Position numbers and translations under genes: made by a program. Positions 14,739 through 31,985 of a DNA stretch of 64,000 bases are shown here, piece by piece. The stretch is from an uncultured Mycoplasmatota bacterium. GTDB lineage: Bacteria > Bacillota_I > Bacilli_A > RF39 > UBA660. The notes beneath the pieces were generated by a model, which did not search any database, was not told the DNA's origin, and worked only from the letters and a program-made list of their open reading frames with translations. Each line of letters starts with the position of its first letter. Within the stretch, counting starts at the first letter, position 1. The stretch is taken from NCBI GenBank assembly GCA_947426265.1, contig CANEDJ010000002.1, positions 367 to 64,366 of the forward strand. Direction: 5' to 3'.

Positions 14739-15123
14739 GATTATAGTATTAAAAAAGCTGTTTGTGATATAATCATATTATAAGTGAGAGATGAAGAAAG
14801 AATGAAAAAATGATTCTTTAATACCAACAATTTGTCCACAATATGGTGTTAATATAGAGCAAAGGAAAAATCTTCATATAGATGGTATGTTGTTTATAGG
14901 GAAGGGTTATCAAATCTCTAAAATAAATTTTCTGTGGATATTTTTTTAAATTCCTTGTATCATTTTACTGATAATGTCAATTTTTCAAAAGATATACATA
15001 TAATAAAAGTAGAGAAATCTTAGGATTAAGGTTTCTCTTTTACTTTACATTTTTATGATAACGCTCTATACAAAAAAGATAAAATTTGGTATAATATAAT
15101 GTGAGAAAAGGTAAGGTGATAGT

Positions 15124-18069
15124 GTGAAAAAATTGGCTAATTCAGTAATTATTGTTTTATTGTTACTTTGTTTTTTTGCACCATCTTTTCATACAAGCGC
15201 AGCTGCGGTTTATGAATTATATATAGAAAATGCAGAAGGCAATCATTTAGTACTGAGTGCAGGAAATTATAAAGAAGCTTACTTACTAGCTTTAGAGAAG
15301 GAAAAAGAGAATCCAAACAATAATGCTGTAATTTATGCAGATGGGAGGGTTGTTTATGCAACCTATGCATTGGTAAACCTTAAAACAAAAGCGTCAATAG
15401 GAGAAAATACAAAGTATAAAATTGAATTTAATAACTTAGATGGTTATGTCAACGGATATTATGGAGCAGATGCTGCCTTTTTAGGAACCAATGAAGATGG
15501 GACACAGGTTAGGTTTATGCAAGCAGGGGTAATTGGTTGGGTAAATTCAAGTGAAGTAGAAATTCTAAATATCAACAGTACTTCTTATACTTCTTTATAT
15601 ACATCTTCTTATAGTATGATATATACAGATGCATGGGAATTAAGACATTATATTACTCTTGATGTTAGAAATTATAAATCTGTGACAAAATTGATGTTAG
15701 GACAAGAAAGACCAACAGGAATGGTCAATGAAACAAATTATTTAAGTTATGATGGTCACTATTTTTATCCTGAGAGTTTAGATGGATTTCGCACAATGAT
15801 TCGTGATTATAAATTAGGAGTTAGAACGAATTCCATTAATCCAAATGATCCATATTATAATTATTATCAATTTTTATCACATCGTTCTATATCAAATTAT
15901 ACAAGTGCTCAGATAAAACAAGATTTAAGTGTTTATACTTCAAAGCCAACTAGCTATCCAGCAAAGACCAATCAATCTCAATTATTTGGAGAAGAAATTT
16001 CCTTTGTTCAATATCAAAATGAATTTGGCGCAAATGCAATTATGATGCTTGGAACAGCTAAAAACGAATCTGCAAATGGAACTTCTAATATCTCTATCAA
16101 TAAAAATAATTTATTTGGTCATAGTGCATTCGATTCTTCTCCAGGAGCAAGTGCAGATGGTTATGTAACAGTTGCACAAAGCATTTTCGCGCATTCTAAA
16201 AAATTTATTTCAGAAGGATATTTAGATCCTTGTGATGGCTATGCAGTTAATGGCAATGGAACCAATGATAAATGTTTACGTGGAAGATATTATGGTGGGA
16301 ATTTAGGAGATAAATCATCTGGTATGAATGTGAAATATGCTTCAGATCCATATTGGGGTGAAAAGGCAGCTGCTAAGTATTATACGTTTGATAAAAAATA
16401 TGGTTTACAGGACTATGGAAAATATAGTATTGGTATAAAAACTTCTACAACAAGTTACCCAATTAAAGCAGAAGCAAACAATAGTAGTAAAACATTATAT
16501 ATGACAGGAAATTCTAATAGTTATGCGATGATTATATTGGAAACAGTAACAGGAGAAGCAATAAATGGAAATAATACTTGGTATAAAATTCAATCGGATC
16601 CTACTTTGAATAGTGCAAGAACAGGTATTGTACAAGATCAAGGAGAATACAACTTTGAACATAATATTGCTTATATACATTCTTCTTATGTAGGATTTGT
16701 AAGAAATGGAAAATCAGGAAAAGCACGATATACAATCAAATTTAATCCAAATGGAGGAAAATTTACTGACAATATTACAAGTACAAAAAGTTTAACAGTA
16801 GAAGAATATGTAATTCCAGAAATTAATAATCCAGTAAGAGATGGTTATATCTTTAAAGGTTGGGATAAAGAAATCGTGGGTGCTACAGAAAATGTAACAT
16901 ATAAAGCAGTCTGGGAACCAATTGTTACAACATATAAAATTACATTTGATGCAGGACAAGGAAGTTTTAGTGATAAATCTAAAAAGAAAGAAATAGAAGT
17001 AAAGGCGGGGGAAATCCCAAGTATAGAAAATCCAAGCTTGGATGGATATACATTTACAGGTTGGAGTCCAAGCTTAAAAGAAGCCACTCAGAATGTAACT
17101 TATGTAGCACAGTATACAAAAAATGGAGAGATTCAATATAAAGAGACAGAAGGAGAGTTTTACTTTCACAATTTGAGTTCATCTGATAAAGGGCTTACCA
17201 TTACTGGATATAGTACTATTAATGGAATATCTATGAATAGTGGAAGTCAAGTAACTTATGAAATTGAATTTGAAAATATGAATACGAACGAAATCACATC
17301 TATTCCTTTAAATCGTATCATGAATCAAAATGATATGCCATTTATCGTTGGAAATATTAATGGAGTAGATGCTACATATTCTTGGTTTACAGGAACAATT
17401 TCATTGAGCGCCTTAAAAGCTGGTGATTATAGAGCTTATATTATTACAAAATCAGGAAATCTATATACAAAAAAATTAGTGAGAAATTTATTTGGCAAAA
17501 GTATGATAAGTAATTATACTTTAAATGGGAAGCAGATCTGGATTAGAAATAATTATTATTTAAAAACAGTTCCTATGGAATTCTTTATAAGAAACCAGGT
17601 AGTTGCTTCAAAAAATAATGATCCTCTTGATAATATGATGACTGGATATTCAAGTATCTCTTTTGAGGGGAATTCATTGAAAATAAGAGGATTCGCTCAT
17701 AATGTAAACGGAAATTATGCAATTGGAGAAACTGTGACAAGAACTATGGTTTTAGAAAATATAGAAACTTATAAGACAATTAGCAATTCTATAGCGACAA
17801 TAACGAATGGAGATTATTTAATTAGTCTTAGAGTTTCAGATGGATTTGATAAAACAAAAGCTTGGTTTGAAGGAACTATTGATATTAGTTCTTTAGAAAA
17901 AGGAACTTATGTTATTTATATTGCCAATTCAGCCAATATTAATGATTTTGCGGAATTGAATGATATATTTGGAAAAACAATAGGGGCCACTACAACAATA
18001 AATGGAAAAAATTATTCACTAAGAGTGAATACAGACATACGATATAGGATTGAACTGATTGTAAAATAG
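15124..18069 (+). CDS. Secreted cell-wall hydrolase: glucosaminidase-domain protein (mannosyl-glycoprotein endo-beta-N-acetylglucosaminidase-like) with two Flg_new (Listeria-Bacteroides) repeats
   Basis: GTG start with RBS AGGTAAGGTGA. Signal peptide. The central region (NNLFGHSAFDS...YYGGNLGDKSSGMNVKYASDPYWGEKAA) resembles the LytD/Atl glucosaminidase domain. Two repeats end KGWDKEIVGATENVTYKAVW and TGWSPSLKEATQNVTYVAQY. Confidence 0.65.
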   Translation: MKKLANSVIIVLLLLCFFAPSFHTSAAAVYELYIENAEGNHLVLSAGNYKEAYLLALEKEKENPNNNAVIYADGRVVYATYALVNLKTKASIGENTKYKIEFNNLDGYVNGYYGADAAFLGTNEDGTQVRFMQAGVIGWVNSSEVEILNINSTSYTSLYTSSYSMIYTDAWELRHYITLDVRNYKSVTKLMLGQERPTGMVNETNYLSYDGHYFYPESLDGFRTMIRDYKLGVRTNSINPNDPYYNYYQFLSHRSISNYTSAQIKQDLSVYTSKPTSYPAKTNQSQLFGEEISFVQYQNEFGANAIMMLGTAKNESANGTSNISINKNNLFGHSAFDSSPGASADGYVTVAQSIFAHSKKFISEGYLDPCDGYAVNGNGTNDKCLRGRYYGGNLGDKSSGMNVKYASDPYWGEKAAAKYYTFDKKYGLQDYGKYSIGIKTSTTSYPIKAEANNSSKTLYMTGNSNSYAMIILETVTGEAINGNNTWYKIQSDPTLNSARTGIVQDQGEYNFEHNIAYIHSSYVGFVRNGKSGKARYTIKFNPNGGKFTDNITSTKSLTVEEYVIPEINNPVRDGYIFKGWDKEIVGATENVTYKAVWEPIVTTYKITFDAGQGSFSDKSKKKEIEVKAGEIPSIENPSLDGYTFTGWSPSLKEATQNVTYVAQYTKNGEIQYKETEGEFYFHNLSSSDKGLTITGYSTINGISMNSGSQVTYEIEFENMNTNEITSIPLNRIMNQNDMPFIVGNINGVDATYSWFTGTISLSALKAGDYRAYIITKSGNLYTKKLVRNLFGKSMISNYTLNGKQIWIRNNYYLKTVPMEFFIRNQVVASKNNDPLDNMMTGYSSISFEGNSLKIRGFAHNVNGNYAIGETVTRTMVLENIETYKTISNSIATITNGDYLISLRVSDGFDKTKAWFEGTIDISSLEKGTYVIYIANSANINDFAELNDIFGKTIGATTTINGKNYSLRVNTDIRYRIELIVK

Positions 18070-18074
18070 AGTAT

Positions 18075-18118
18075 AAAAAATAAGTTAGAGATTATTTCTT
18101 CTAACTTATTTTTTTTGA
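18075..18118. terminator. Bidirectional rho-independent terminator between convergent genes
   Basis: AAGTTAGA...TCTAACTT flanked by A-run and T-run. Confidence 0.55.
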
Positions 18119-18135
18119 ATGAATTTTGATTTTCT

Positions 18136-20094
18136 TTATTCAACTACATAAATAGTATATGTCTTACAACTAACAATAGGAGTTCCATTATTAGTAGGAG
18201 AAGATGGATGAATTAATCCTGAATTAATACTATTGTGATCTTTGGTGACTATATTGAATATTGCACCAGGATAAGCAGATGCCAATTTTGATTTTAAACT
18301 TGAAATTGTCTTACTTGAATTTCCAGGGCTAAGCCATCCTTCTTGAATATTTAAATTTCCTAATGATTTTTCAGTACATGTTGGAGTAGTTGGTTTATTT
18401 GTAGAATTAGAACCATTTCCAGAAGGTTTCGGACCATTGCTAACTGTTAATACAACTGTTGTGCCATCAATAACTTTTGATCCAGAGCTCATGCTTTGAT
18501 TGAATATAATACCTTTGGTTTTGCTACTGTAGACATAGGACATTTTACAAGTAATTCCTAAGTTATTACAAGTCGTTTGTGCTTTGCTCGCACTCATTCC
18601 AATAAAACTAGGGAGTTCTATAGAAGCACCTAAAGATATAACAACTTTAAATTCATCACCTGGATTAATTTCTTCGCCTGGTTTTTTAGAAATACTGATA
18701 AATTTTCCTTTTTCAACTGTTTCGCTAAATTCTGATTCTTCATTTAAGGTTAGTTTATTTTCGTTTGCAAAGTTACGAAGAGCTATAATATCACCATCTG
18801 CAATAGTAATCATTTTTAAAGTACCCTTAGAAGTGATAATATGAATTCTGGCATTTTCTTCTAATGTATCTCCTTCTTTAACACTAACTCTAATAATTTC
18901 ACCAGCTTTAATTTCGCTATTGTATTCACTTTCATAAATAATGACTAATTTATTTTTTATTGCCCATTCTGTAATTTCATCTAATGACATTTTCATTAAA
19001 TCAGGAGCAATAATTTTTGGACCTTTTGAAATAATAATTTGTACAGTAGTTTCCTTTTGGTTGATTAATGTACCACTATCTGGGGTTGTAGAAATAACAT
19101 TTCCTGCTTTGATATCATTGCTGAATTCATAGGAAATTTCATATCTAATTCCGTTTCTTTTTAACCATAAAATAGCATCAAATTCTTCTAAATTGGCTAA
19201 ATCTTTTAAATTAACTGGTTTTAAATCTGCCTCATTTCCTAATGAGAATGTAATGTTAATTTCTTCATTTCTTCTAACTTCACCAGATTTATTTTGCTCA
19301 AATGCAACATCTTTTTCGATTGCTTCATTAAACTGATATTCTATATTTACATTATTTAATTTTAATTCTTTAATTTTTAAAACCACATCATCTATATTCC
19401 AGCCAATCATATTGGGAATGCTAACAATAGATTCATAATTAGGCCCGTTAGAAACAACAACTTCTAAAGATTTTATTTCTTTTACTAAAGTATTAGCGGG
19501 AATGCTTTGACTAATAACGTGATCACTTTCTATAGAATCGCTATATTCATAAGTTTGCTCTAAAGTTATCTTATTTTTATTAGCCCATTTTACAACTTCA
19601 TTGATACTAACATTACTAAAGTCTCCAACGGTTTTTAAAGTGGGCAATGTAAGAATGTTAGAAGTAACAAGAAATTGAAATCCAGTATATAAAGTAATTA
19701 ATACGATACCAAATAGTTCCAATTTTTTTTGAATTTTTTGATTTGTTGTAAAACCAGTTAGAACCATAAAAGAACTAATTAGTAATAAACATGTACTTGT
19801 AATAATTAAATAGGGTTGATTTACTTGATCAGTAGATTTTACGATTGTATATATTAGAAAGCTTAAACTAGATACAAGTGCAATAAAAGAGATGACTGTA
19901 AGTAAAGTACGAGGCTTTTGCTGTCCAGCTTTTATTTTCTCTTTAGACCCCTTCGACTTTTTTTGTTCTTTTTTCTGGACTTCTTTTTTCTTAGAATCCT
20001 TTCTTTCTTTTTTTTCACTTTTTAAGCTTTCTTCGTCTTCTTTTAAAGCACTTAATAAGTCTAATTTTTCTTTTAATCTCTCATTTTCATTCAT
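18136..20094 (-). CDS. PASTA-domain membrane protein without a kinase or PBP domain
   Basis: K/E-rich coiled-coil N-terminus, one TM helix, then at least five ~70-aa repeats each ending SNGP/SKGP (PASTA-like). RBS AGGTGA on the minus strand. Confidence 0.6.
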   Translation of the reverse strand: MNENERLKEKLDLLSALKEDEESLKSEKKERKDSKKKEVQKKEQKKSKGSKEKIKAGQQKPRTLLTVISFIALVSSLSFLIYTIVKSTDQVNQPYLIITSTCLLLISSFMVLTGFTTNQKIQKKLELFGIVLITLYTGFQFLVTSNILTLPTLKTVGDFSNVSINEVVKWANKNKITLEQTYEYSDSIESDHVISQSIPANTLVKEIKSLEVVVSNGPNYESIVSIPNMIGWNIDDVVLKIKELKLNNVNIEYQFNEAIEKDVAFEQNKSGEVRRNEEINITFSLGNEADLKPVNLKDLANLEEFDAILWLKRNGIRYEISYEFSNDIKAGNVISTTPDSGTLINQKETTVQIIISKGPKIIAPDLMKMSLDEITEWAIKNKLVIIYESEYNSEIKAGEIIRVSVKEGDTLEENARIHIITSKGTLKMITIADGDIIALRNFANENKLTLNEESEFSETVEKGKFISISKKPGEEINPGDEFKVVISLGASIELPSFIGMSASKAQTTCNNLGITCKMSYVYSSKTKGIIFNQSMSSGSKVIDGTTVVLTVSNGPKPSGNGSNSTNKPTTPTCTEKSLGNLNIQEGWLSPGNSSKTISSLKSKLASAYPGAIFNIVTKDHNSINSGLIHPSSPTNNGTPIVSCKTYTIYVVE

Positions 20095-20278
20095 ATTATC
20101 ACCTAATATACATTATACCGCATTTTAATAAATATGAAAACGGATGAATACGTTTTTTGTTTATAGTTTACAATTGGAAATTATAGAAATAACAAAAAAA
20201 AGAAGATAAGGTGGTAATATGTGTCAAATTTTGCTATAATTGTAATAGAACAAAGAAAATAATGTAGGTGAACAGTTA

Positions 20279-23200
20279 ATGAGAAAACAATTATCAATGA
20301 AAAACTTTATTACAGGAATTATTCCATATTTTGTTTTAGCAATCCTTGGATTTGTACGAGTGGATTTTTTTGTAGATAATCTTGGGGATGAAATTTATGC
20401 AATTAATCAATTGTTTTTTCAAATATTTGCTTATATTTCTTTGGTAGAAGCAGGTATTGGACCTCTTATTACGCAACAATATTATAAATTCTTTGCAGAT
20501 CAAGACCATAAATCTATTAGTGGACTTTATACAACCTCAAAGAAAATGTTACAAAAAATTTCAATTGCTATTTTAATAATTGGGTTTATCGTTTCTTTAT
20601 TTTTAAAATTTTTGACAAATAATAACTTAGCGCTTGGATATATGCAAATTGTATTTATGATATTCTTATTTCGCAGCATTTTGGAATACCTAATGCTTTC
20701 TCCGCGATTGGTATTACAAGCAGATCAAAGAATTTATAAAATTAATGTGTTATTGAATGCTTATAAAGTAATAGAAATTATTGTAGAAATTACACTGTTA
20801 CAATGTGGAATTGATTATTTAGTTATTTTGTTATCTTCTATTGTAGTAAGATTCTTGTCTTATTACTATACTAATCGTAAAATCTTTAAAGAGTATCCTT
20901 GGTTAACTGTGGTAAATAAAAATGAAGTGGTAAAATTAAAAAATTCAACTAGTGTTTTATGGCATAAATTGGCAGATGCCATTTATAATAATACGGATAT
21001 TTTATTAATATCTGCTAAGTTGGAACCAATAAGTGTTGTTATTTATTCTGCTTATAAGTATATTGTAAAATTTATTGTAGATGGAGTTTATATCTTATCA
21101 AATGCTTTGACAGCAAGTTTTGGAAATGTAGTTTATAAAAGCAAGAAAGCGGACAAACATCTGATATTTGAAGAAATGAATATGGCCTTTTTAGCGGCAG
21201 CTAGCTTTTTTACGATTACTGTTTATGTATTAAGTCATACTTTTGTGTCTTTGTGGTTAGGCCCAAATAAGTTAATGGATAATTTAGCTTTTATTTTTAT
21301 GATAATAGTATTATTCAACGATATTGCTAGAAGACCATTTCTTATTTGTAGGGATGCTAATGGATTGTTTAAAGAAACACAATTGATTACAATTGTAGAA
21401 TCCTTTTTAAATTTAATATTATCAATAGTACTAGTTTTTAAATATGGTGTAGTTGGAGTTTTATTTGCAACAGCTTTTTCAACACTTGCCACAAGTTTTT
21501 GGTTTTATCCACGTTATATTTATAAACAGGCATTTTATATGGATTCAAAGCAATACTTTCTCAAATACTTTACTTGTGTAATAATAACCATAATAGGATG
21601 TTTTGTTGGAAGACATTTGTTTGAAATTTTACCCTCTTCTGGTTATGTTAGTTGGATTTTCAGCGCTGTTGTTATTTGTCTATTAGCAATTGTTTTGATT
21701 GCTATAACATTTATAATATGTTTTAAAGATTTTCGCAGATTGTTATATAAAGCAAAATTATTGTTGGAGGAGATGAAAATAATGGAAAGATTGAAAAATA
21801 TGAAGAAGATGATGATTGATAAAGAAGTTCTTATAAAATTATTGATGTTCTTTTTAATGTTACAACCTGTTTTAGATATTTATATATTATTTGAACCTAC
21901 AGTTGTTTCATTTTTTCACTTTTCTCCAACGACAATTATAAGAATCCTTTTTGTTGGGCTATTGCTTTTAATGTTAGGATTTACATTAAAATATTCAAAA
22001 AAATATTTTTTGATGTTGGGATATATATTTTTGGTTGTTTTATATGCAATATTTCATCATTTGAATGCGATGCAGTTTCAATCTAATGTGCCAGGGAATT
22101 TTGGTTATTCTTTTACGTCAGAAATTTTCTATATTATTCGAATGTTATTGCCACTTATTATGATTATAATATCCTATCATGTAAAATTTAGTGAGAAGCG
22201 AATGCAAACAGTAATTCAAACTTTAATACTTCTTATTTCTGGAAGCATTGTTATAACTAATCTTTTTTCTATATCTTTAGCTTCTTATACAAAAACATCA
22301 ATAGCAGCGAATATATTTACATGGTTTACTGATCAATATGAAAAATATAATTATTTACAATTGGCATCAAGAGGTTTTTTTGTGTCAGCAAATCGTATTT
22401 CAGCATTAGAACTTCTATTGACACCAATTTGGTTATTTTTCTTTATTAAAAAACCTACCAAAAAAAACATAGTTATTACTATTATACACATTATTGCAAT
22501 GCTTATGCTTGGAACAAAAGTTGCAACTTTGGGAATAATTTTGTTATTAATCTTATCGTTTTTAATATATTGCTATTGTTGCTTTATACAAAAAGAATTT
22601 GAATTTTCTAAAAAAATTTTATATTCATTTATTATGTTTGTAATCATTTGGAGCTCTATATTTCCGCTATCGCCTGCAATGAATCGAAATAATATTGATA
22701 ATAATAGAGAACAAAATTCTGAAACGATGGTAACTTGCAAAAAAATGAAGCAAATACCGTTAGGTCAGATAAAATATGAAGATCCTTTAATTGAATATGA
22801 AACTGATGATCTTACGAAATGCTCATTAAATAAGGATTTAGAAAAGCAAAAATTGGAATTAGTAGAAAGAAATTTAGCATTTCTTTCAAAAGAAGAAGAA
22901 AAAGTAGAATATTTAAAATCTTTTATAGAAGTAGAATATGAGAATTTCAATATAAAGACGGAGTTTCTTTTTGAATCTTATCCGTATCAATATAACCCTT
23001 ATTTTTGGTATGATATTATGAAAGAACCTTTAATGGTGCGAACTAATTTTAGAATTTTAGAGGAACGAATGCTTTCCAATATAAAAAAACAAAATAATAA
23101 TTACTATGATAATTATTTTGGCATTACATTTACTAGAATGAGTAATATTTTTGATTTAGAAAGAGATTTCATTTCACACTATTATACATTAGGATGGTGC

Positions 23201-24619
23201 GGGTTAATTTTATTGTTATTCCCTTATTTGATAATTGTGGTGTTTGGAATTATTTTAATGTTATTTCAATTTAAAGAAAAAATTAATTTTTATAATATAA
23301 TGCTATTATTTTCGATTGGAATTACATTATTTGCTGCATATTATAGTGGAAATATAATGGATGGTTTAATTGTTACCTTGATTTTAGGATTTATTATTGG
23401 ACAATTTGTACAATGTGTATATAGGAGGAATAAAACAATGAATGAAAAGAAAAAAATATCCATTATTATGCCAACTTATAATGATGCAAAAAGTATTTGT
23501 GAAACACTAGATTCTGTCATAGAACAAACTTATCAAAATTGGGAATTAATTATTGTTGATGATGGTTCAAAGGATGAAACAAGATCAGTGATAAAAAGTT
23601 ATAAAAAAGCCCACAAAAATGATAATAGAATTCAATATGTATACCAAAAAAACACAGATCAATTAAAGGCTATTATACATGGAATGGATTACATAAGCGG
23701 AGATTATATTTATATTCTTCATTCTGATGACTTGCTAGCAACAAAAATGGTATTTGAAAGGGCAGTTCAATACTTAGAAAAGTATACAGAAGTTGATGCT
23801 ATAATAGGAGATTTGATTGTAATTGATGAAAATAGTAAAATAACAGGAAGGCAAGAAGTATTATCATACTTAAAAAAAGAAAAAACTCCAGCAATTCAGC
23901 TACTTTGGCTTGGAAGAAATTTATATGTTGATTTTGCTTTTCATAGAAAAAAATTTTTTTTTGAAAATGTAAAAGAAAATTATTTAACTTGGAATACTCC
24001 TTTTTGGTTAAACACCTCTGATTCTTTATCTATGCTAAATGTAAAAAAAGTTGATTTTGAATTTATTAAATATAGGGTCCATAGTGGCAATTATATCAAT
24101 AATGATATTGGCAAATTAAATGTTATAAATGGAGAACTAAGAACGGTTACTCGTTTAATGAAATATTATGACATTCCAAATTATAAAAAACAATTTTATA
24201 TTTTTCGTATTTTCAATCGATTAAATTTTTTACAGATTTATAAGCCTCTATATAAAAAACGAGAATTTACAAATAAAGCAGAAGTTTTGGATTTTATAAT
24301 TCGAAAGAGATTTTCAAATGGATATAATGATAATTGTTTTTTAAAAAGTCTTGTAAGTTTTTATGAAAATTTTCATTCAAGAAAAATATATTTTAAAGAT
24401 ATTTATAATAATGAAATTATATATAAGGGAAATGAAATGAGGCAATTTAACAAAGAATTAATAGATAATAAATTACCAAATCTATATTTATCTATATTCA
24501 AAGAAATGCAAGTTGGCTTTGATGAGATTATAGTGAAGACTGAAGAGGAAAAAGAAAAAGCGATTAATTTAACAAAATTTTTATGTATTTATCCATTTGT
24601 AAAAGTTACGAAGAAGTAG
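20279..24619 (+). CDS. Tri-modular glycopolymer protein: Wzx-type polysaccharide flippase (aa 1-~490), Wzy/O-antigen-ligase-like polytopic module (aa ~499-1050), family-2 glycosyltransferase (aa ~1054-1446)
   Basis: Continuous 1446-codon frame in AT-rich DNA. The N-terminal module has a 12-14 TM MOP-flippase pattern. The middle module has many TM helices plus a ~190-aa hydrophilic loop. The C-terminus reads ISIIMPTYNDAKSICETLDSVIEQTYQNWELIIVDDGSKDET (GT2 DXD region). Internal RBS+ATG pairs sit at both junctions (GGAGGAG at 21766 then ATG 21773/21782; AGGAGG at 23423 then ATG 23438). Confidence 0.65.
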   Translation: MRKQLSMKNFITGIIPYFVLAILGFVRVDFFVDNLGDEIYAINQLFFQIFAYISLVEAGIGPLITQQYYKFFADQDHKSISGLYTTSKKMLQKISIAILIIGFIVSLFLKFLTNNNLALGYMQIVFMIFLFRSILEYLMLSPRLVLQADQRIYKINVLLNAYKVIEIIVEITLLQCGIDYLVILLSSIVVRFLSYYYTNRKIFKEYPWLTVVNKNEVVKLKNSTSVLWHKLADAIYNNTDILLISAKLEPISVVIYSAYKYIVKFIVDGVYILSNALTASFGNVVYKSKKADKHLIFEEMNMAFLAAASFFTITVYVLSHTFVSLWLGPNKLMDNLAFIFMIIVLFNDIARRPFLICRDANGLFKETQLITIVESFLNLILSIVLVFKYGVVGVLFATAFSTLATSFWFYPRYIYKQAFYMDSKQYFLKYFTCVIITIIGCFVGRHLFEILPSSGYVSWIFSAVVICLLAIVLIAITFIICFKDFRRLLYKAKLLLEEMKIMERLKNMKKMMIDKEVLIKLLMFFLMLQPVLDIYILFEPTVVSFFHFSPTTIIRILFVGLLLLMLGFTLKYSKKYFLMLGYIFLVVLYAIFHHLNAMQFQSNVPGNFGYSFTSEIFYIIRMLLPLIMIIISYHVKFSEKRMQTVIQTLILLISGSIVITNLFSISLASYTKTSIAANIFTWFTDQYEKYNYLQLASRGFFVSANRISALELLLTPIWLFFFIKKPTKKNIVITIIHIIAMLMLGTKVATLGIILLLILSFLIYCYCCFIQKEFEFSKKILYSFIMFVIIWSSIFPLSPAMNRNNIDNNREQNSETMVTCKKMKQIPLGQIKYEDPLIEYETDDLTKCSLNKDLEKQKLELVERNLAFLSKEEEKVEYLKSFIEVEYENFNIKTEFLFESYPYQYNPYFWYDIMKEPLMVRTNFRILEERMLSNIKKQNNNYYDNYFGITFTRMSNIFDLERDFISHYYTLGWCGLILLLFPYLIIVVFGIILMLFQFKEKINFYNIMLLFSIGITLFAAYYSGNIMDGLIVTLILGFIIGQFVQCVYRRNKTMNEKKKISIIMPTYNDAKSICETLDSVIEQTYQNWELIIVDDGSKDETRSVIKSYKKAHKNDNRIQYVYQKNTDQLKAIIHGMDYISGDYIYILHSDDLLATKMVFERAVQYLEKYTEVDAIIGDLIVIDENSKITGRQEVLSYLKKEKTPAIQLLWLGRNLYVDFAFHRKKFFFENVKENYLTWNTPFWLNTSDSLSMLNVKKVDFEFIKYRVHSGNYINNDIGKLNVINGELRTVTRLMKYYDIPNYKKQFYIFRIFNRLNFLQIYKPLYKKREFTNKAEVLDFIIRKRFSNGYNDNCFLKSLVSFYENFHSRKIYFKDIYNNEIIYKGNEMRQFNKELIDNKLPNLYLSIFKEMQVGFDEIIVKTEEEKEKAINLTKFLCIYPFVKVTKK

Positions 24620-24629
24620 GAGGAAAAAT

Positions 24630-25331
24630 ATGATACCAAAAAAAGTACATTTTATTTGGGTAGGTGGAAAAGAAAAACCGAAAGATATAGTGAAATGCAT
24701 GAAAACTTGGAAGAAACATTTGAAAGGTTATGAAATTGTTGAGTGGAATGAATCTAATTTTGATATTCATTCACATCCGTTTGCAGAAGCAGCCTATAAA
24801 GCAAAAAAATGGGCTTATGTAAGCGACTATATTAGGGCGTATGTGATTTATCATGAGGGAGGAATTTATGTTGATACTGATGTGTTGATCTTAGATAATT
24901 TTGATAAGTTCTTAATGCATAAAGCATTTGTAGGGTTTGAACGGCCAGAATTTCCTTTTACAGCTGTATTTGGTGCAGAAAAAGGTCATCCTTTTGTAAA
25001 AGATATGTTAGATTATTATGACTCTTTAGATAGTTATCAATTCGATTTTCAAAATAATAATACTATTTCTGTATCAGATATTTTAGTAGATAAGTATGGA
25101 TGTAGGAAAGATAACCAATATCAAGAATTAAAAGAGGGAATTATTGTTTATCCTGACACAGTTTTATGTAATCCATCAATTAATTCTGTTTCAATTCATG
25201 TTTTTAATGGTTCTTGGCTAGAAGAAAAAAAACCTTTTAAAAGAAAAATTAACAAATTTTTAAAATTAAAATTAACGAGTCAAAAACGATCAGCTTGGTA
25301 TCGAAAGAATATTCAAAAAATAAAAGATTAA
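24630..25331 (+). CDS. Glycosyltransferase, GT32-like (Gly_transf_sug DXD family)
   Basis: PKKVHFIWVGG and SDYIRAYVIYHEGGIYVDTDV motifs. Confidence 0.7.
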   Translation: MIPKKVHFIWVGGKEKPKDIVKCMKTWKKHLKGYEIVEWNESNFDIHSHPFAEAAYKAKKWAYVSDYIRAYVIYHEGGIYVDTDVLILDNFDKFLMHKAFVGFERPEFPFTAVFGAEKGHPFVKDMLDYYDSLDSYQFDFQNNNTISVSDILVDKYGCRKDNQYQELKEGIIVYPDTVLCNPSINSVSIHVFNGSWLEEKKPFKRKINKFLKLKLTSQKRSAWYRKNIQKIKD

Positions 25332-25363
25332 AACAACACTTGAAAATTTAGGAGAAAAATGAT

Positions 25364-26503
25364 ATGAAAAAAGTAGCAATTTTAGGGCTTCATTTAGGAT
25401 ATGGTGGAGTCGAGCAGTCAATTGTTAATTTAGCTAATATGCTTTGTGAAAAATATGAAGTAGAGCTTGTGATTACATATCAGGTAGTAGAAGAAGTACC
25501 TTATAAAATAAATCAAAAAGTAAAAATTACTTATCTTACTGATTTGAAACCTAATCGGGAAGAATTTAAAAAAGAATTAAAAGAAAGACATTTGATACAG
25601 GCTTTTAAAGAAGGATTAAAAAGCATTTTGATTTTACATAAAAGGATATCTGTTATGAAAAAGTATATAAAAAACAGTGATGCTGATATATTAATATCTA
25701 GTAGAGTTTTATATACAAAGCTAGTAAGTAAGTATGCAAAAAAAGGAGTTATTACCATAGCGCAAGAACATTGTCACCATAATAATAATCAAAAATATAT
25801 TAATAAAGTTAAAAGGGCTTGTCGAAACATAAACTACTTAATACCAGTTTCAAAAGAATTAACAAGTGACTATCAAAAAATGATTCAAAATGGGAAAACC
25901 GTCTGTTTATTTATTCCAAATTCGTTAGAATTTTGGCCAGAAAAAACCTCTAACTTAGATTGTAAAAATCTAATATCTGTTGGACGTATTTCCAAAGAAA
26001 AAGGATATCTAGATTTAATTGATGTATTTGAATTGATTCATCAAGTGAACCCAGATTGGAAGTTAAACATTATTGGTAATGGTGGAGAGATGTCAAAATT
26101 AAAAGAAAAAATAACAGAGAAAAAATTAGAGAAATATGTGATACTTCACGGCTTTCAAAATAAAGCTTATATTTATGAGCAACTATTACAATCTTCAATT
26201 TATGTGATGTGTTCCTATGAAGAATCATTTGGTATTGTTTTATTAGAAGCCGCATCGTTTGGTATACCACTGATTGCATATTCTAGTGCTCAAGGAGCTC
26301 ATGAAATTATCGAAAATAATGAAAATGGATATTTAATAGAAAATCGTGATAAAAATAAAATGGCAACCAAAGTTAATGAATTAATTGACAGTCAAGAACA
26401 GCGAATAAAATTGGGAACTTTTGCAAGAACAAGTGTAGAGCAATTTGCATTTGAAAATGTAAAAGAACAATGGCTTAAGTTCCTAGATAGTATGGAGGAG
26501 TAG
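25364..26503 (+). CDS. Glycosyltransferase family 4 (GT-B)
   Basis: EESFGIVLLEAASFGIPLIAYSS (E-x7-E) motif. Length 379 aa. Confidence 0.8.
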   Translation: MKKVAILGLHLGYGGVEQSIVNLANMLCEKYEVELVITYQVVEEVPYKINQKVKITYLTDLKPNREEFKKELKERHLIQAFKEGLKSILILHKRISVMKKYIKNSDADILISSRVLYTKLVSKYAKKGVITIAQEHCHHNNNQKYINKVKRACRNINYLIPVSKELTSDYQKMIQNGKTVCLFIPNSLEFWPEKTSNLDCKNLISVGRISKEKGYLDLIDVFELIHQVNPDWKLNIIGNGGEMSKLKEKITEKKLEKYVILHGFQNKAYIYEQLLQSSIYVMCSYEESFGIVLLEAASFGIPLIAYSSAQGAHEIIENNENGYLIENRDKNKMATKVNELIDSQEQRIKLGTFARTSVEQFAFENVKEQWLKFLDSMEE

Positions 26504-26504
26504 T

Positions 26505-27245
26505 ATGAAGAACTTTTTTGAAAGAATGTATAGTGCTTCCTATCAAGAGTTTGAAAAGGAATTAGAAAAAAATTTAAGGGAAAACCGAAAAATGTTTGTC
26601 GTAACAGCGAATCCAGAAACTTTTATGATTGGAACAAACAATCAAGAAGTAAGTCAAATTCTATTAGATAGAAAAGTAACAATTGTACCAGATGGAATCG
26701 GCATTGTGAAAGGCGCTAACATGCTGGGCTATAAAGTGAAAGAAAGAATTCCTGGAATTGAGATTGCTTGGAGTTTGTTAAAACTAGGAAATGAACAAAA
26801 AAAATCGATTTTTCTCTTAGGAGCCAGCGAAGAAGTAAAAGAAAAAATGATAGAAAAATTAAAAGCAGATTATCCAAATTTAAAAATTTTAGGAGCTATA
26901 AATGGCTATGGTAAAAACAAAGATAAAGATTTTGAACGAATAAAAAAAGAAAATCCAGATATCATTTTAGTAGCGCTAGGAATACCAGCTCAAGAAAAAT
27001 TAATTTATAAACATTTAGATGACTTTTCAAAAGGAATTTTTGTAGGTGTAGGAGGTTCTTTAGATGTAATTAGTGGAGCTAAAAAAAGAGCACCAAAAAT
27101 ATTTCAAAATTTGGGACTTGAATGGTTATATAGATTGGCAAAAGAACCAAAAAGAATTAAACGTTTTTATAATAGCAATGTGAAATTTATATTTGAAATA
27201 AAAAAATTGAAGAAAGGAAAAAATAATGAAATGGTTAAAAAGTAA
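26505..27245 (+). CDS. tagA: WecG/TagA/CpsF-family (GT26) N-acetylmannosaminyltransferase
   Basis: VTANPETFM...VPDGIGIV...LLGASEEV, characteristic of TagA. Confidence 0.8.
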   Translation: MKNFFERMYSASYQEFEKELEKNLRENRKMFVVTANPETFMIGTNNQEVSQILLDRKVTIVPDGIGIVKGANMLGYKVKERIPGIEIAWSLLKLGNEQKKSIFLLGASEEVKEKMIEKLKADYPNLKILGAINGYGKNKDKDFERIKKENPDIILVALGIPAQEKLIYKHLDDFSKGIFVGVGGSLDVISGAKKRAPKIFQNLGLEWLYRLAKEPKRIKRFYNSNVKFIFEIKKLKKGKNNEMVKK

Positions 27246-27446
27246 CTATTTAATATTGTGTCAGTTTCATATATTATTTTTTAGTATAGAATGAAACTTA
27301 TATTTTAATATTATTTACAGGAAGATTGACTGCTGCAAATTTTAGTACTGGAAGTGTCGCCAAGCTATTTTTTACGAACGATGACAACTCTTGCTATATG
27401 TGTTTTAGTAGCACTAGACAAGTTAATTACGAAGGAGGATTAAAAA

Positions 27447-28550
27447 ATGATAAAAGTAATGACTATATTTGGAACAAGGCCAGAGGCTATTAAAATGGCC
27501 CCTTTGGTAAAAGAATTGAAAGCTAGAAAAGAAATAGAGACCATTGTATGTGTAACCGCTCAACACAGAGAAATGTTAGACCAAGTGTTAGAAGCATTTG
27601 ATATAAAACCTGATTATGATTTAAACATTATGAAGCAAGGACAGACTTTAGGAGAGGTTACAACAAGAGCGCTAACTGGGTTAGAAGATGTTATCAAAAA
27701 GGAAAAGCCAGATATAGTGTTAGTACATGGAGATACAACAACAACGTTTTCAGGAGCCTTAGCTGCTTTCTATAATAGTGTTGCAATTGGTCATGTAGAG
27801 GCAGGGCTTAGGACTTGGGATAAATATTCGCCCTATCCTGAAGAAATGAACCGTCAAATGGTAGGGTGTATGGCAGATATGCATTTTTCACCAACAGAAG
27901 TAAGTGCAAGGAATTTACTCAATGAAGGAAAGAAAAAAGAGAATATCTATATTACTGGAAATACAGCCATTGATGCTATGAAAACAACTGTCAAAGATGA
28001 TTATCATCATGAAGTATTTGATTGGATTGGCAGTAGTCGAATGGTTTTATTAACTGCACATAGAAGAGAAAACTTAGGAGAACCGATGTACCATATTTTT
28101 AAAGCTGTTAAAAGAATTGTTGATGAATTTGAAGACATTAAAGTTGTATATCCAATTCATATGAATCCAAAAGTTCGGGAAGTGGCTAATGAGGTTTTAA
28201 AAGACACAAACAGAGTAAAATTGATAGAGCCATTAGAAGTAGTTGATTTCCATAATTTTATTAATAAATCTTATATTATTTTAACAGATAGCGGAGGAAT
28301 ACAAGAAGAAGCACCTTCTTTAGGAAAACCTGTGTTGGTACTTAGGGATACTACAGAAAGACCAGAAGGGATTAATGCAGGAACTTTAAAATTGGTTGGA
28401 ACTGATGAAGATATTATTTATAATGAAACTAAAACTTTACTTATTGATAAAGATGTATATGAAAAAATGAGTAAAGCTAGCAATCCTTATGGAGATGGGG
28501 AAGCTAGTAGAAGAATAGCAGATGCGATTATAGAAAAATTTTCTAAATAG
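27447..28550 (+). CDS. mnaA: UDP-N-acetylglucosamine 2-epimerase (non-hydrolysing)
   Basis: MIKVMTIFGTRPEAIKMAPLV N-terminus and HVEAGLRT motif. Confidence 0.9.
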   Translation: MIKVMTIFGTRPEAIKMAPLVKELKARKEIETIVCVTAQHREMLDQVLEAFDIKPDYDLNIMKQGQTLGEVTTRALTGLEDVIKKEKPDIVLVHGDTTTTFSGALAAFYNSVAIGHVEAGLRTWDKYSPYPEEMNRQMVGCMADMHFSPTEVSARNLLNEGKKKENIYITGNTAIDAMKTTVKDDYHHEVFDWIGSSRMVLLTAHRRENLGEPMYHIFKAVKRIVDEFEDIKVVYPIHMNPKVREVANEVLKDTNRVKLIEPLEVVDFHNFINKSYIILTDSGGIQEEAPSLGKPVLVLRDTTERPEGINAGTLKLVGTDEDIIYNETKTLLIDKDVYEKMSKASNPYGDGEASRRIADAIIEKFSK

Positions 28551-28570: not shown

Positions 28571-29419
28571 ATGAAAGATTATATATCTTTAATGAGGCCA
28601 AAGCATTATTTGAAAAATACCTTGATATTTTTTCCATTAATATTTTCAGCTCTCATTTTTGAAAAACAAAATTTTCTGTCTTGTTTGTTTGGGTTTATTG
28701 CCTTTTCTTTATCTGCATCTACTATTTATATTGTTAATGATATACGAGATAAAGAAAAAGATAGAAATCATGAAAAGAAAAAAAATAGGCCGATTGCTTC
28801 TGGAAAAGTGAGCATACCAAGTGCGATTATATTGGCTTGTATCCTATTTCTTATATCGTATATCTTTCATTTCTTTGCAGTTAAAGAAATAGCTCATTCG
28901 AGCTATATATATATACTAGTATATATAATTATTAATCTTGCCTATAGCTTTGGACTTAAAAATGTACCACTAGTAGATGTAACAATTTTAGTAATTGGAT
29001 TTTTACTGCGTGTACTATATGGTGCAGCAATCATAGGCATTGAAGTATCAAATTGGCTTTATTTAACTATTATTTCTATTTCGTTTTATTTGGGTTTGGG
29101 TAAAAGAAGAAATGAGATAAAGAAATCAGGAACTAGATCAAGAAAAGTGTTAGATTATTATAATGAAGAATTTTTAGACAAAAACATGCATATGTGTATG
29201 TCACTTGCTATTGTATTTTATTCCTTATGGTGCGCTAGTAGTCCAAATCATTTAATAGTTTGGACTGTTCCACTAATAATATTATTGTGTATGCGTTATA
29301 GCATGGATGTTGAAGGTGATAATTTTGGAGATCCTATTGACGTGATATATGCAGACAAATTTTTAGGTCTATTAGCTTTAATTGTTGGAATAATACTATT
29401 TGGAATTATTTATATGTAG
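28571..29419 (+). CDS. UbiA-superfamily polyprenyl-phosphate phosphoribosyltransferase homolog (DPPR-synthase subfamily)
   Basis: Seven to eight TM helices. Motif NDIRDKEKDRNHEKKKNRPIASG, compared from memory with mycobacterial Rv3806c (NDxxDxxxDRxHPxKxxRPIAxG). RBS AAGGAGTG. Confidence 0.65.
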   Translation: MKDYISLMRPKHYLKNTLIFFPLIFSALIFEKQNFLSCLFGFIAFSLSASTIYIVNDIRDKEKDRNHEKKKNRPIASGKVSIPSAIILACILFLISYIFHFFAVKEIAHSSYIYILVYIIINLAYSFGLKNVPLVDVTILVIGFLLRVLYGAAIIGIEVSNWLYLTIISISFYLGLGKRRNEIKKSGTRSRKVLDYYNEEFLDKNMHMCMSLAIVFYSLWCASSPNHLIVWTVPLIILLCMRYSMDVEGDNFGDPIDVIYADKFLGLLALIVGIILFGIIYM

Positions 29420-29431
29420 GGAGGAAATTGT

Positions 29432-31012
29432 ATGAAACAGAAAATAAAATTCTTTTTTAAAAATAAAAATTTAATAGTTCATTTATTTCTTATATTTTCT
29501 ACATTAATTTTTATTTGTGCAAGTATTTCTCCAATAAGGACATTATTCAAAAATAATTTTATGTATACAATCATCTCATTAATCGTATTTTGCGTTTTAA
29601 TATACTGTATCTGGAAATTTTTAAAAAGAGCAGAAGTAGAAAAGAAATGGATTGAATATCTAATTGTGGGCATCCTTATTTTATTGGGCTTGTTATTGCG
29701 AATAGGAACTAATAATATAATCAAGACACAACCAATTTCAGATTTTAATACGCCACATGATGTATATAAACAATTACATAGTGAAAATAATGATATTTTC
29801 GCACCAAAGAGTGATTATCAAAGTTTAAGTTTTTATCAGCGATATTATTCATCCTATCCAGCATGGTTTCCTTATATGAAAGTAATTAGTTTCATATATG
29901 ATACATTTGGAGAAAATCTTAAATATATTAAGCTAATGAATTGGGGGCTTTATATAATCACGTCGCTTTTGCTGTATTGGATTGGGAAAAAAATAAAATC
30001 AAAAAAAGCAGGGATTATTGCATTATTGTTGTTTTCCTGCTTTCCTTCCTTAATTGTTTATACAAACATTACAACACCAGATCATTTTACAATTTTGTTG
30101 TTTACTTGTTTTATTGCAACTTGGGTAAAATTATTAGAATATAGAAAGAAAAAAAGCAAAAAAATTATTTTATGGTGTTTTTTAAATGTTTTATCAATTA
30201 TAGGAATTAATTTATTTAAACCGCTTTCAATTTTAGGACTATTAGTGTTTATTTGCACTGAGTTGTTATGTATTTTATTTCCTATTTTACGCGAAAGAGA
30301 AAGTAGAAAACAATATTTTAAACAATCATTTGCTTTTGCTGTTGGCTTTATAATAGCATGCTATTTGGGTATCAGCATATCAAGTCATATATTAAATGTA
30401 CAAGTAGAAAAAACAATTCACACTGAGGTAGTAGATTCAACTCCACTTTATTTACTTTGGGCTTATTCTTTAGATGAAAAAGGGAATTATAACCCAGATA
30501 TTGCTACTCAAACTTATACCGAATTATTAATAAAATACAATGGGAATCAGAAAGAGGTAATGAAAGAACTTGCAATACTGGCGAAAACACAAATTGTAAA
30601 AAATATTTCAAAATTACCAAAGATTTTTTATCAAAAGTTTAAAGTTGTATTTTCAAGCGAAGAGGATATCTTTTCATTTGCAAATTATAGTAATAATGAA
30701 ATATATGAACAAAAATTAAGAAAAACAATACTAAAGTATTATATATATATTTCAAATACATTTATGGGGGTTTTATTTCTACTTTGTACTTTTTCTCTTA
30801 TAAAAGAAATAAAGGATAAAGAGAAAAATCCAATCATCATCGTAATTACGTTAACAATTATAGGCTATTTTTTAATTTTATTATTAGGTGGAGTTCAAGG
30901 GCGATACAAAATGCTTATGGCTTCATTATTGTGTATTTTAGCTGGAACTATTTTTAGCGAAAACAGAAAGGAAGATGAGTATGTTAATAAGTGTTGTCAT
31001 TCCTTGCTATAA
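29432..31012 (+). CDS. Polytopic GT-C-fold glycosyltransferase (ArnT/PMT/Aft-like, GT39/83-type)
   Basis: 526 aa, at least 12 TM helices, periplasmic loops, aromatic-rich first loop. Call rests on architecture only. Confidence 0.5.
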   Translation: MKQKIKFFFKNKNLIVHLFLIFSTLIFICASISPIRTLFKNNFMYTIISLIVFCVLIYCIWKFLKRAEVEKKWIEYLIVGILILLGLLLRIGTNNIIKTQPISDFNTPHDVYKQLHSENNDIFAPKSDYQSLSFYQRYYSSYPAWFPYMKVISFIYDTFGENLKYIKLMNWGLYIITSLLLYWIGKKIKSKKAGIIALLLFSCFPSLIVYTNITTPDHFTILLFTCFIATWVKLLEYRKKKSKKIILWCFLNVLSIIGINLFKPLSILGLLVFICTELLCILFPILRERESRKQYFKQSFAFAVGFIIACYLGISISSHILNVQVEKTIHTEVVDSTPLYLLWAYSLDEKGNYNPDIATQTYTELLIKYNGNQKEVMKELAILAKTQIVKNISKLPKIFYQKFKVVFSSEEDIFSFANYSNNEIYEQKLRKTILKYYIYISNTFMGVLFLLCTFSLIKEIKDKEKNPIIIVITLTIIGYFLILLLGGVQGRYKMLMASLLCILAGTIFSENRKEDEYVNKCCHSLL

Positions 31013-31985
31013 TGTAGAGAAGTTCATTGATAAATGCTTAAATTCGATATTAAAGCAAACATATAAAAATTTAGAGATTATATTATATGATGACTGTTCA
31101 GAAGATAAGACAAATGAAATATTGAAAACTTTGCAAAAAAAAGATGGTAGGATTAAAGTATACTTTGGAAAAGAAAATGCAGGACCAGGAGGAGCGAAAA
31201 ATGAGGGTTTAAAAAGAGCAACGGGTGATTATGTTTTATTTATTGATAGTGATGATTATGTTGGAAAAACTTATATTGAGGAAATGGTGAATGTTGCTTT
31301 GAAAAACCCTGCTTTAGATATAATAACTACAAATTTTACCAAAATAGATCAGAATGGAAAAATTGCCTATATAAGAGACTATAAGAATAGTGAAGTTGCC
31401 TTATGGCAAAAAATAACTACATGGGGAAAATTATTCAAAAGAGAGTGGTTAACTAGCAATACTTTGTCATTACCATATGGAAAGGTATTGGAAGATGTTT
31501 TATTCCATGGAGCTTGTATGATTGTCAATCCTAAATCAGAGCTTTGTCATAATCAAGAATATTATTATGTTTTTAATAGTCATTCGATCTCACATACAAC
31601 ATTAAATCAGTTTAAACCTGGAGCTTTAAAGCAGGGACAAGAATACTTAATTTCACTAAAAAACATAGCAAAAACAGAAGAAAAAGAAGAACTTCTTAGC
31701 TATTTTGCCTTTCAATATATTTGTTGGCATCTTTTAAAAAGTGGTAATAATGTTGGAAAAGAAGCAATGGAAAAAGAATATGATCAAGCATTTTCTTTCT
31801 TAGAAATAGAATTTCCTAAGTTCAAAAAAAATAGATATATTTCTATATTTCATCCTCAAAAAGAAAGACGAATTATATTTTTTGTAATGTACAATACAAA
31901 AATATTATATAAATTGCATTTAGCAAAATTCTTTTTTAAAATTTATAGTAGGGTTAATTTGGAGAAATTATGGCCAAATTTATAA
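30981..31985 (+). CDS. Glycosyltransferase family 2
   Basis: VVIPCYNVEKFIDKCLNSILKQTYKNLEIILYDDCSEDKT and FIDSDD motifs. RBS AAGGAAG 6 nt upstream of the ATG at 30981. Confidence 0.8.
   Translation: MLISVVIPCYNVEKFIDKCLNSILKQTYKNLEIILYDDCSEDKTNEILKTLQKKDGRIKVYFGKENAGPGGAKNEGLKRATGDYVLFIDSDDYVGKTYIEEMVNVALKNPALDIITTNFTKIDQNGKIAYIRDYKNSEVALWQKITTWGKLFKREWLTSNTLSLPYGKVLEDVLFHGACMIVNPKSELCHNQEYYYVFNSHSISHTTLNQFKPGALKQGQEYLISLKNIAKTEEKEELLSYFAFQYICWHLLKSGNNVGKEAMEKEYDQAFSFLEIEFPKFKKNRYISIFHPQKERRIIFFVMYNTKILYKLHLAKFFFKIYSRVNLEKLWPNL

Follow-up and report, generated by a model that had tools for sequence, protein, structure and literature searches.

A flippase-like module, a WaaL/Wzy-clan enzyme and a glycosyltransferase encoded in one open reading frame of an uncultured gut Bacilli bacterium

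In the Wzx/Wzy pathways of glycan assembly, the glycosyltransferase that acts last in the cytoplasm has to pass the repeat unit on to the flippase, which in turn delivers it to the polymerase; the manner of this hand-over is largely inferred. Wzx/Wzy-dependent systems (O-antigen, capsule, teichuronic acid with TuaB/TuaE/TuaG, and secondary cell-wall polysaccharide, SCWP) share the kinds of components: cytoplasmic glycosyltransferases (GTs) acting on a unit linked to undecaprenyl pyrophosphate (Und-PP), a MOP/PST flippase and a WaaL/Wzy-clan enzyme at the outer face. According to a recent review, Wzy proteins have been very hard to purify for structural work, and the complexes that it documents are only those of Wzy with Wzz (PMC12004945). 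We analyzed a 64,000-nucleotide stretch of DNA (the window; positions 367 to 64,366 of contig CANEDJ010000002.1, assembly GCA_947426265.1) from an uncultured bacterium annotated to Bacilli. In contrast to the known Wzx/Wzy-dependent loci, a flippase, a Wzy-clan protein and one GT are encoded here as a single polypeptide by one gene at 20279..24619. Judging from sequence comparison and structural models, we consider it likely that the product is a single-chain GT–flippase–polymerase assembly line for a wall polysaccharide.

The gene and the parts of its product (aa, amino acids; TM, transmembrane) are listed below.

20279..24619, plus strand: triple-fusion gene, 1446 codons; 170.4 kDa, about 26 TM helices and a cytoplasmic GT domain
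20279..21772, plus strand: module N (aa 1-498), predicted MOP-superfamily, PST/Wzx-like flippase of lipid-linked glycans; 14 helices, both termini cytoplasmic (AlphaFold2, Foldseek)
21725..21829, plus strand: linker 1 (aa 483-517), K/R-rich (11 K+R), cytoplasmic, containing the N–M junction
21773..23437, plus strand: module M (aa 499-1053), PF13425 'O-antigen ligase-like' membrane protein of the WaaL/Wzy clan, 12 TM helices
22673..23203, plus strand: extracytoplasmic loop of M (aa 799-975, 177 aa) between TM9 and TM10, mostly helical, with 30 acidic and 23 basic residues
23438..24619, plus strand: module C (aa 1054-1446), soluble GT2 (GT-A) with a C-terminal extension of about 180 aa of unknown fold

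The open reading frame (ORF) starts with ATG and contains only the stop at its end, as seen in the ORF list and the translation, and the two other forward frames across the same stretch carry 155 and 134 stops. The DNA around the gene is about 26% GC. When the gene was shuffled (n=500), the longest stop-free run had a mean of 66 codons and never exceeded 126, so the observed frame lies far beyond chance. The exact 1446-aa protein (P0001) was encoded on 19 contigs, the places listed corresponding to seven different samples among the Logan and ENA assemblies. Two alleles of 1444 aa each (P0002 and P0003, 66% and 64% identical to P0001, respectively) were recovered from five further samples and share both the unbroken frame and the gene neighbourhood of P0001. 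Nei-Gojobori estimates of synonymous (dS) and nonsynonymous (dN) divergence between P0001 and P0002/P0003 were as follows.

Module N: dS 0.56-0.62, dN 0.06-0.07
Module M: dS 1.34-1.39, dN 0.40-0.41
Module C: dS 1.42-1.62, dN 0.33-0.37

The low dN/dS ratio, about 0.1-0.3 in each of the modules, indicates purifying selection on all three of them, and the frame has outlasted saturating synonymous divergence. Because 19 contigs, independent samples and two diverged alleles keep the frame, it is no sequencing artefact. The single uninterrupted 1446-codon ORF described in an earlier note on this DNA, made from the letters alone, was thus confirmed by independent assemblies and by diverged alleles, and the module boundaries fell where that note had put them (PF13425 on aa 518-1042, PF00535 on aa 1061-1210 and a 14-helix model of N). 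We conclude that the ORF at 20279..24619 is a true gene and belongs to the chromosome of an uncultured Bacilli bacterium of the human gut. Housekeeping proteins of the window have identical counterparts among NCBI entries from MAGs (metagenome-assembled genomes), for instance MCI8545477.1.

The same note had called the organization of the gene unusual, and database searches bore this out. An exhaustive HMMER search with aa 247-1446 as the query against 1.84 billion representative proteins clustered at 50% identity returned exactly one cluster with all three modules, P0003, which represents the three alleles. At least 17 M+C fusions (890-944 aa) exist. Those of gut Firmicutes (e.g., P0092-P0094, P0145, P0159) resemble the window protein in modules (PF13425+GT2), order and short linker, and are 45-54% identical to it over M+C, but they lack module N, the flippase being encoded by a separate upstream gene. 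This is seen in the syntenic locus L033, in which a gene for a 502-aa PST flippase, only 28% identical to N of the window, and, 163 bp further on, a gene for a 944-aa M+C fusion (P0093) precede genes for a Gly_transf_sug GT, a GT4, WecG and MnaA, as in the window. Another locus, L035, encodes a 961-aa N+M fusion (P0004; N part 43% identical) with a separate C gene 5 bp downstream. A scan of metagenome contigs with a junction-spanning peptide found only three unfused M-type loci and no further fused alleles.

A scan of GTDB with one genome per species revealed 15 loci with an N homologue, 37-49% identical, in gut Bacilli, Acutalibacteraceae, Ruminococcus, Bariatricus, Erysipelatoclostridium and two metagenome-assembled genomes (MAGs) binned as Muribaculaceae. 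In all 15 loci N is an ORF of its own (505-528 aa), and C and M are separate nearby ORFs whose order, frame and even strand differ. The M proteins have about 500 aa, except for an 895-aa M-containing ORF in L003. In L004 the N and M genes overlap by 4 nt (…AGGAGATCAAAATGA…), with the Shine-Dalgarno (SD) motif of M lying within the last codons of N. L004 and L001 are the two Muribaculaceae-binned MAGs (Bacteroidota), and their N, M and C proteins are 43-48%, 36% and 47% identical to the window protein, respectively; either horizontal transfer or misbinned contigs would account for this set.

Since separate genes (N|M|C), both partial fusions (N|M+C and N+M|C) and the complete fusion (N+M+C) all occur, the series makes a strong comparative case for joint action of the three proteins. 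In the sequences compared, the M+C fusion is common, the N+M fusion has arisen in a second lineage and the triple fusion is very rare. This comparison supports a stepwise origin of the triple fusion from neighbouring genes, in which M and C would have fused first and N would have joined later.

Fusions of other kinds were also observed among the relatives: PF13425+GT4 proteins of 768-891 aa (P0156, P0158, P0162, P0226), a 667-aa PF13425+Alg14-like protein (P0179) and an 801-aa fusion of a PST flippase (PF01943) with a Gly_transf_sug GT (P0007/P0013). In gut Firmicutes, cytoplasmic GTs seem to have been joined repeatedly to flippases or to proteins of the Wzy clan.

Module C was readily assigned. 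PF00535 (GT2) matched aa 1061-1210 with E values of 5e-31 to 5.5e-32 (111.5 bits against a cut-off of 23.3), and the GT2 motifs 'IIMPTYND', 'VDDGS' (DD at 1094) and 'HSDD' (DD at 1150) are present, so that the canonical GT2 domain proposed to start at aa 1054 was found as predicted. Ordinary GT2 enzymes are the nearest relatives in sequence with a solved structure. Stand-alone C orthologues have 385-405 aa and are 42-49% identical over the full length, and the scores against named NCBIfam equivalogs, PgaC and NodC included, were all far under the cut-offs. Module C contains neither a QxxRW motif nor a hydrophobic segment (max KD19 0.75); therefore it is a soluble, non-processive GT-A enzyme and no synthase. 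Assignment to the processive synthase-type GT2 enzymes (cellulose, hyaluronan and PNAG (poly-N-acetylglucosamine) synthases) was rejected on the same grounds.

The topology predicted by the models is self-consistent: 14 TM helices running in-to-in, the K/R-rich cytoplasmic linker, 12 TM helices again in-to-in, and the GT2. As M runs in-to-in after N, both ends of which are cytoplasmic, the GT2 domain is placed in the cytoplasm. Helix counts were taken from AlphaFold2 models, since crude hydropathy undercounted the helices in N.

These parts suggest how the locus may work. TagO, encoded elsewhere, together with TagA and MnaA would build GlcNAc-ManNAc (N-acetylglucosamine, N-acetylmannosamine) on Und-PP, and a GT4, a Gly_transf_sug GT and the tethered GT2 would finish the lipid-linked unit on the cytoplasmic side of the membrane. 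Next, the unit would be flipped by module N, and module M would link flipped units to one another, forming a wall polysaccharide at the outer face (or ligate the glycan to an acceptor), after which an LCP enzyme, also encoded elsewhere, would attach the polymer to peptidoglycan. Through the fusion, the final cytoplasmic step, flipping and polymerization would all take place within one complex. The stronger proposal, that the 170-kDa protein with about 26 TM helices is itself the functional unit, whose tethered GT2 would complete the repeat unit and pass it directly on to the neighbouring flippase, and this in turn to the neighbouring polymerase, is put forward tentatively, at slightly under an even chance.

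Several observations weigh against this assembly line. The activities of the modules are predictions from sequence and models. Polymerases and ligases of the WaaL/Wzy clan are not separable by sequence. Module N has no direct match to a family model, and its top structural matches are MurJ, the lipid II flippase, and not WzxE. Both junctions carry an SD motif and ATG allowing shorter products, so the full-length form is perhaps not the sole or the main one. Finally, no initiating phosphoglycosyltransferase, Wzz/PCP chain-length regulator or LCP ligase was found among the scanned ORFs of the window, a difference from Wzx/Wzy-dependent loci; these missing pathway genes may be encoded elsewhere in the genome.

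The signals at the junctions bear on a first alternative, nested expression.

21766..21772, plus strand: SD-like GGAGGAG at junction 1 (codons L-E-E), with in-frame ATGs at 21773, 21782 (9-nt spacing) and 21800
23423..23440, plus strand: AGGAGG at junction 2 (23423-23428, two AGG Arg codons), a 9-nt spacer and ATG 23438 (Met1054), in this allele only

The motifs and ATGs were exactly at the positions reported in the earlier note, with the ATG at 21800 in addition. They would permit nested initiation, besides or instead of synthesis of the 170-kDa protein, at ATG 21782/21800 to give M+C (about 112 kDa) and at ATG 23438 to give a free GT2 (47 kDa). Such initiation would restore the ancestral two- or three-protein system and is compatible with the full-length protein. 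Both motifs are strong, correctly spaced and located exactly on the domain boundaries. Counted over every listed ORF of the window, an internal GGAGG is followed by an in-frame ATG at 4-11 nt in just five cases, two of which are these, so that chance is an unsatisfying explanation. They are composed of codons rare in the window (GAG, 13.5% of Glu; AGG, 11% of Arg). In the alignment the stand-alone M+C protein P0093 begins opposite Met508, and Met1054 occupies the position at which the stand-alone C proteins start.

Conservation of the signals argues in the opposite direction. The Met at junction 2 was present in 1 of 12 M+C-containing fusions, that of the window, and absent from P0002, P0003 and nine others, so a free GT2 is no conserved need. 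At junction 1, the sequence 'TTGGAGGAGATGAAAATAATG' is identical in P0003, the SD motif is weakened to GGAAGAG in P0002, and the peptide 'LLLEEMKIM' is identical in all three alleles. As the N-module DNA is 85-88% identical between the alleles, this conservation is no proof of selection and the signal can also be explained as a passive relic of a coupled overlap. The overlap in L004 places the SD of M inside the N coding sequence, and fusion by stop-codon loss would therefore keep it in frame. N would probably have joined in this way: the upstream gene of an overlapping, translationally coupled pair would have lost its stop codon, and SD and ATG would have stayed in frame at junction 1. The SD and ATG of junction 1 in three alleles look as expected from such a fused pair and alone are no sign of internal initiation.

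The ribosome-binding sites had been described as fossil-like at each junction; this description fits junction 1, where the site occurs in three alleles and is weakened in one, and not for junction 2, where a conserved fossil was rejected given the lack of Met in the other 11 M+C-containing fusions. A promoter and terminator scan of 19900-25000 gave 41 promoter-like sites against 39.5 expected and 0 terminators; in DNA of 26% GC such a scan is uninformative and unable to reveal an internal promoter. Altogether, we regard nested initiation as possible but rather unlikely.

The next alternative leaves the architecture of the single-chain assembly line unchanged and concerns the activity of module M, which would be a ligase moving the lipid-linked glycan en bloc to another acceptor. 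The PF13425 profile (O-antigen_lig) matched aa 518-1042 with E=6e-54 (184 bits against a cut-off of 31); a second scan gave E=2e-55 (188.8 bits) over profile positions 4-453 of 462. The AlphaFold2 model of M (pLDDT 91.1, pTM 0.90) has 12 membrane helices and a big helical region between helices 9 and 10, and its fold is WaaL/SEDS-like. Thus the middle module, described previously as Wzy/O-antigen-ligase-like with a large external loop, was confirmed at the clan level by PF13425 and the 177-aa loop, and it is not a mere linker membrane domain. Among 67 sequences, W412, R427, E463 and D465 (module numbering) are invariant, and N443 and R455 nearly so. The invariant residues cluster in the external loop, right ahead of helix 10, and this loop carries most of the polar residues invariant in the family; the best explanation is that the active region of M, as modelled, faces outward.

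A sequence search of the PDB with the M-family profile returned nothing significant. In two fold searches, the sole solved structure among the matches returned that clearly resembled M was the ligase WaaL (PDB 7tpg/7tpj), which is 10-13% identical to M; M differs from it by a much larger external loop, by membership in PF13425 and by a host that presumably lacks lipid A-core. The WaaL match is in favour of a ligase, as is the name of the Pfam family, 'O-antigen ligase like'. Solved Wzy structures, however, were absent from the matches of either search, for which reason the WaaL match says little about polymerase versus ligase activity. Clan CL0499 unites PF13425 with Wzy and WaaL, and the family includes WpaA and WpaB of Bacillus anthracis. 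These two are implicated in the assembly of SCWP, and polymerization and ligation were both proposed for them without biochemical proof (PMC6030368). They are like M in family, in their Gram-positive host and in the context of a wall polymer based on ManNAc/GlcNAc, but they stand alone whereas M is fused.

The adjacent genes for TagA and MnaA, makers of the linkage disaccharide, also fit a ligase, and the murein linkage unit made by TagA, a lipid anchor or a surface protein would be the candidate acceptors (cf. WaaL and the PglL-type O-oligosaccharyltransferases). On the other hand, no other Wzy-like polymerase candidate is present in the island around the gene and a Wzx-type flippase is usually paired with a polymerase; moreover, a Bacilli host would have no lipid A-core acceptor. 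We infer from the annotation of the host as Bacilli, with PASTA, MurD and TagA-type genes, that a lipopolysaccharide acceptor is unlikely. M is probably a polymerase rather than a ligase, although sequence cannot separate the two within the WaaL/Wzy clan, and the ligase alternative as a whole seems unlikely.

Even less probable is that N is no dedicated Wzx but flips lipid II in the manner of MurJ, or acts as a general flippase, and that its fusion to M+C is incidental. Module N itself matched nothing in Pfam (E<=10) or NCBIfam, and PDB sequence searches with N alone or with a profile of 61 N-family sequences gave nothing significant. Its AlphaFold2 model, built from the homologue alignment (pLDDT 89.6, pTM 0.88), shows 14 long helices, and Foldseek against the PDB returned MOP-superfamily transporters only, with a probability of 1.00 and TM-scores of 0.6-0.75. 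The matches comprise MurJ (7wag, TMq 0.73-0.75), WzxE (9g9n), the enterobacterial common antigen flippase (TMt 0.70) and MATE transporters. MurJ and WzxE (PDB 7wag, 6nc8, 9g9n) have the fold in common with N, and N has 14 helices as in MurJ, but it is 12-16% identical to these proteins, matches no MurJ/Wzx family model and is covalently joined to its presumed downstream enzyme. By the fold of its model, N is a MOP flippase. The rank of the 14-helix MurJ structures above the 12-helix WzxE favours the MurJ-like alternative, as does the far higher conservation of N between alleles (87-88%) than of M (50-52%) or C (57-60%).

The homologues tell against it. They are stand-alone proteins of 500-512 aa, some of which are named 'O-antigen/teichoic acid export membrane protein', 'sugar translocase' or 'lipopolysaccharide biosynthesis protein' in their sources; 6 of the 61 match PF01943 Polysacc_synt (best E=4.9e-11) and 1 of 61 matches PF13440. 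The MVIN/MurJ family of Pfam (PF03023) was matched neither by module N nor by any of the 61 homologues. Furthermore, genes of the N family adjoin C and M orthologues in many genomes, the second N lineage (P0004, 43% identical) is likewise fused to an M-type protein, and N lies inside a strain-variable glycan island, with dS of 0.56 against about 0.01 in the flanks. We regard N as a divergent member of the PST/Wzx family by transitive homology and context, its own sequence fitting no named family. The Wzx-type flippase previously placed at the N-terminus is accordingly supported by fold, homologues and context and not by its own sequence, and a Pfam scan of the whole protein matched PF13425 and PF00535 directly and Polysacc_synt only via the N homologues.

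The remaining alternative, a frame created by an assembly or sequencing artefact joining two or three genes, has nothing in its favour beyond the a priori rarity of the architecture and is of negligible probability, the identical protein being found on 19 contigs from many samples and assemblers and the frame being kept by two alleles with saturated synonymous divergence.

The single-chain assembly line is encoded next to other genes of glycan synthesis (assignments by Pfam/NCBIfam).

24630-25331, plus strand: Gly_transf_sug GT
25364-26503, plus strand: GT4
26505-27245, plus strand: TagA/WecG ManNAc transferase
27447-28550, plus strand: MnaA UDP-GlcNAc 2-epimerase

The adjacency of TagA and MnaA is likewise found in SCWP pathways and in those of the wall teichoic acid linkage unit. 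The order of these four genes is kept 3' of the fusion gene, or of the unfused M+C gene, in L021-L025 and L033. Upstream of the fusion gene there are genes for RecD2, a large glucosaminidase and, on the opposite strand, a kinase-less PASTA protein.

Comparison with L021, which carries the allele P0002, showed near-identical flanks: RecD2 is 99% identical (dS 0.12), and the genes from MnaA through GtrA are 99-100% identical (dS <=0.01). For that reason P0001, P0002 and P0003 are considered alleles in one species-level group. Conservation of the fusion in three species was considered and rejected, the flanking genes being 99-100% identical with dS<=0.12. Between the flanks, the island at about 14900-27300, from the glucosaminidase to WecG, is strongly diverged and differs in gene content. 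The identities are 65% for the glucosaminidase, 87% for the PASTA protein, 76% for GT4 and 84% for WecG, the Gly_transf_sug GT shows a dS of 1.6, and the L021 island contains in addition TPR genes, CDP-OH_P_transf genes and a gene for a 558-aa PTPS_related protein. In these respects the island behaves like a serotype locus.

In a neighbour-joining tree, M+C of the window grouped with P0092-P0094, which have no N module, and M+C of P0002 and P0003 grouped with P0137 and P0099. This grouping, together with the contrast in identity between N and M or C, points to exchange or joint diversification of the M+C cassette. Such joint variation would make sense if M recognizes the residue or linkage formed by the GT2. 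Since the gene lies within a strain-variable island, it probably determines a surface-antigen type of a common human-gut organism; one related metagenome contig came from a human gut metagenome.

Further features of the neighbourhood were recorded. The glucosaminidase (981 aa, 15124-18069) contains Listeria-Bacteroides repeat domains and lies at the island edge; it is 64-65% identical between alleles, and its counterparts in L021 and L023 have 1052-1054 aa. The enzyme may vary in step with the wall glycan to which it binds or which it cleaves. The PASTA gene (18136-20094, minus strand), the divergent neighbour of the fusion gene, encodes a 652-aa protein with six PASTA repeats and N-terminal hydrophobic segments, 80-87% identical between alleles, which matches the Stk1 model in the PASTA half alone and has no kinase domain. 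Among ORFs of at least 110 aa it is the only substantial one on the minus strand of the window, the other one (137 aa) being contained in the FtsK gene, and a local flip of the GC skew coincides with the PASTA gene. The conserved block 3' of the island (28571-33356) comprises a UbiA-family gene similar to decaprenyl-phosphate phosphoribosyltransferase (199 bits against a cut-off of 207), genes for a 526-aa GT-C-like protein (weak PMT_2 match), a 336-aa GT2 and GtrA, and a HAD phosphatase–GtrA fusion. It resembles a donor pathway for polyprenyl-phosphate-linked pentose or sugar combined with a three-component extracytoplasmic glycosylation system, which is unusual for Bacilli.

No report of natural Wzx-Wzy or Wzy-GT fusions was found in the literature searched, where absence is no proof of absence. 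Relative to that literature, the covalent union of a flippase, a Wzy-clan enzyme and a GT, the graded partial fusions and the widespread M+C architecture were not known before. The modules come from known superfamilies and follow the familiar Wzx/Wzy logic, and the protein is a new domain architecture made from known parts with no new mechanism. A natural gene fusion is classical 'Rosetta-stone' evidence of physical and functional coupling, and the case presented here is stronger than one odd gene would be because all the fusion states exist among the relatives. The fusion thus argues for three enzymes working as a physical unit. If the single-chain reading is true, the protein would be natural evidence that GT, Wzx and Wzy form one physical complex with substrate channelling and a ready-made single-chain specimen for the Wzx-Wzy arrangement, and the partial fusions in relatives would imply that ordinary three-gene systems assemble this complex as well, without covalent links. 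The fusion also ties a flippase family without a Pfam match and a specific GT2 subfamily to the PF13425 proteins of many gut Firmicutes, which aids the annotation of wall-glycan loci in uncultured gut bacteria.

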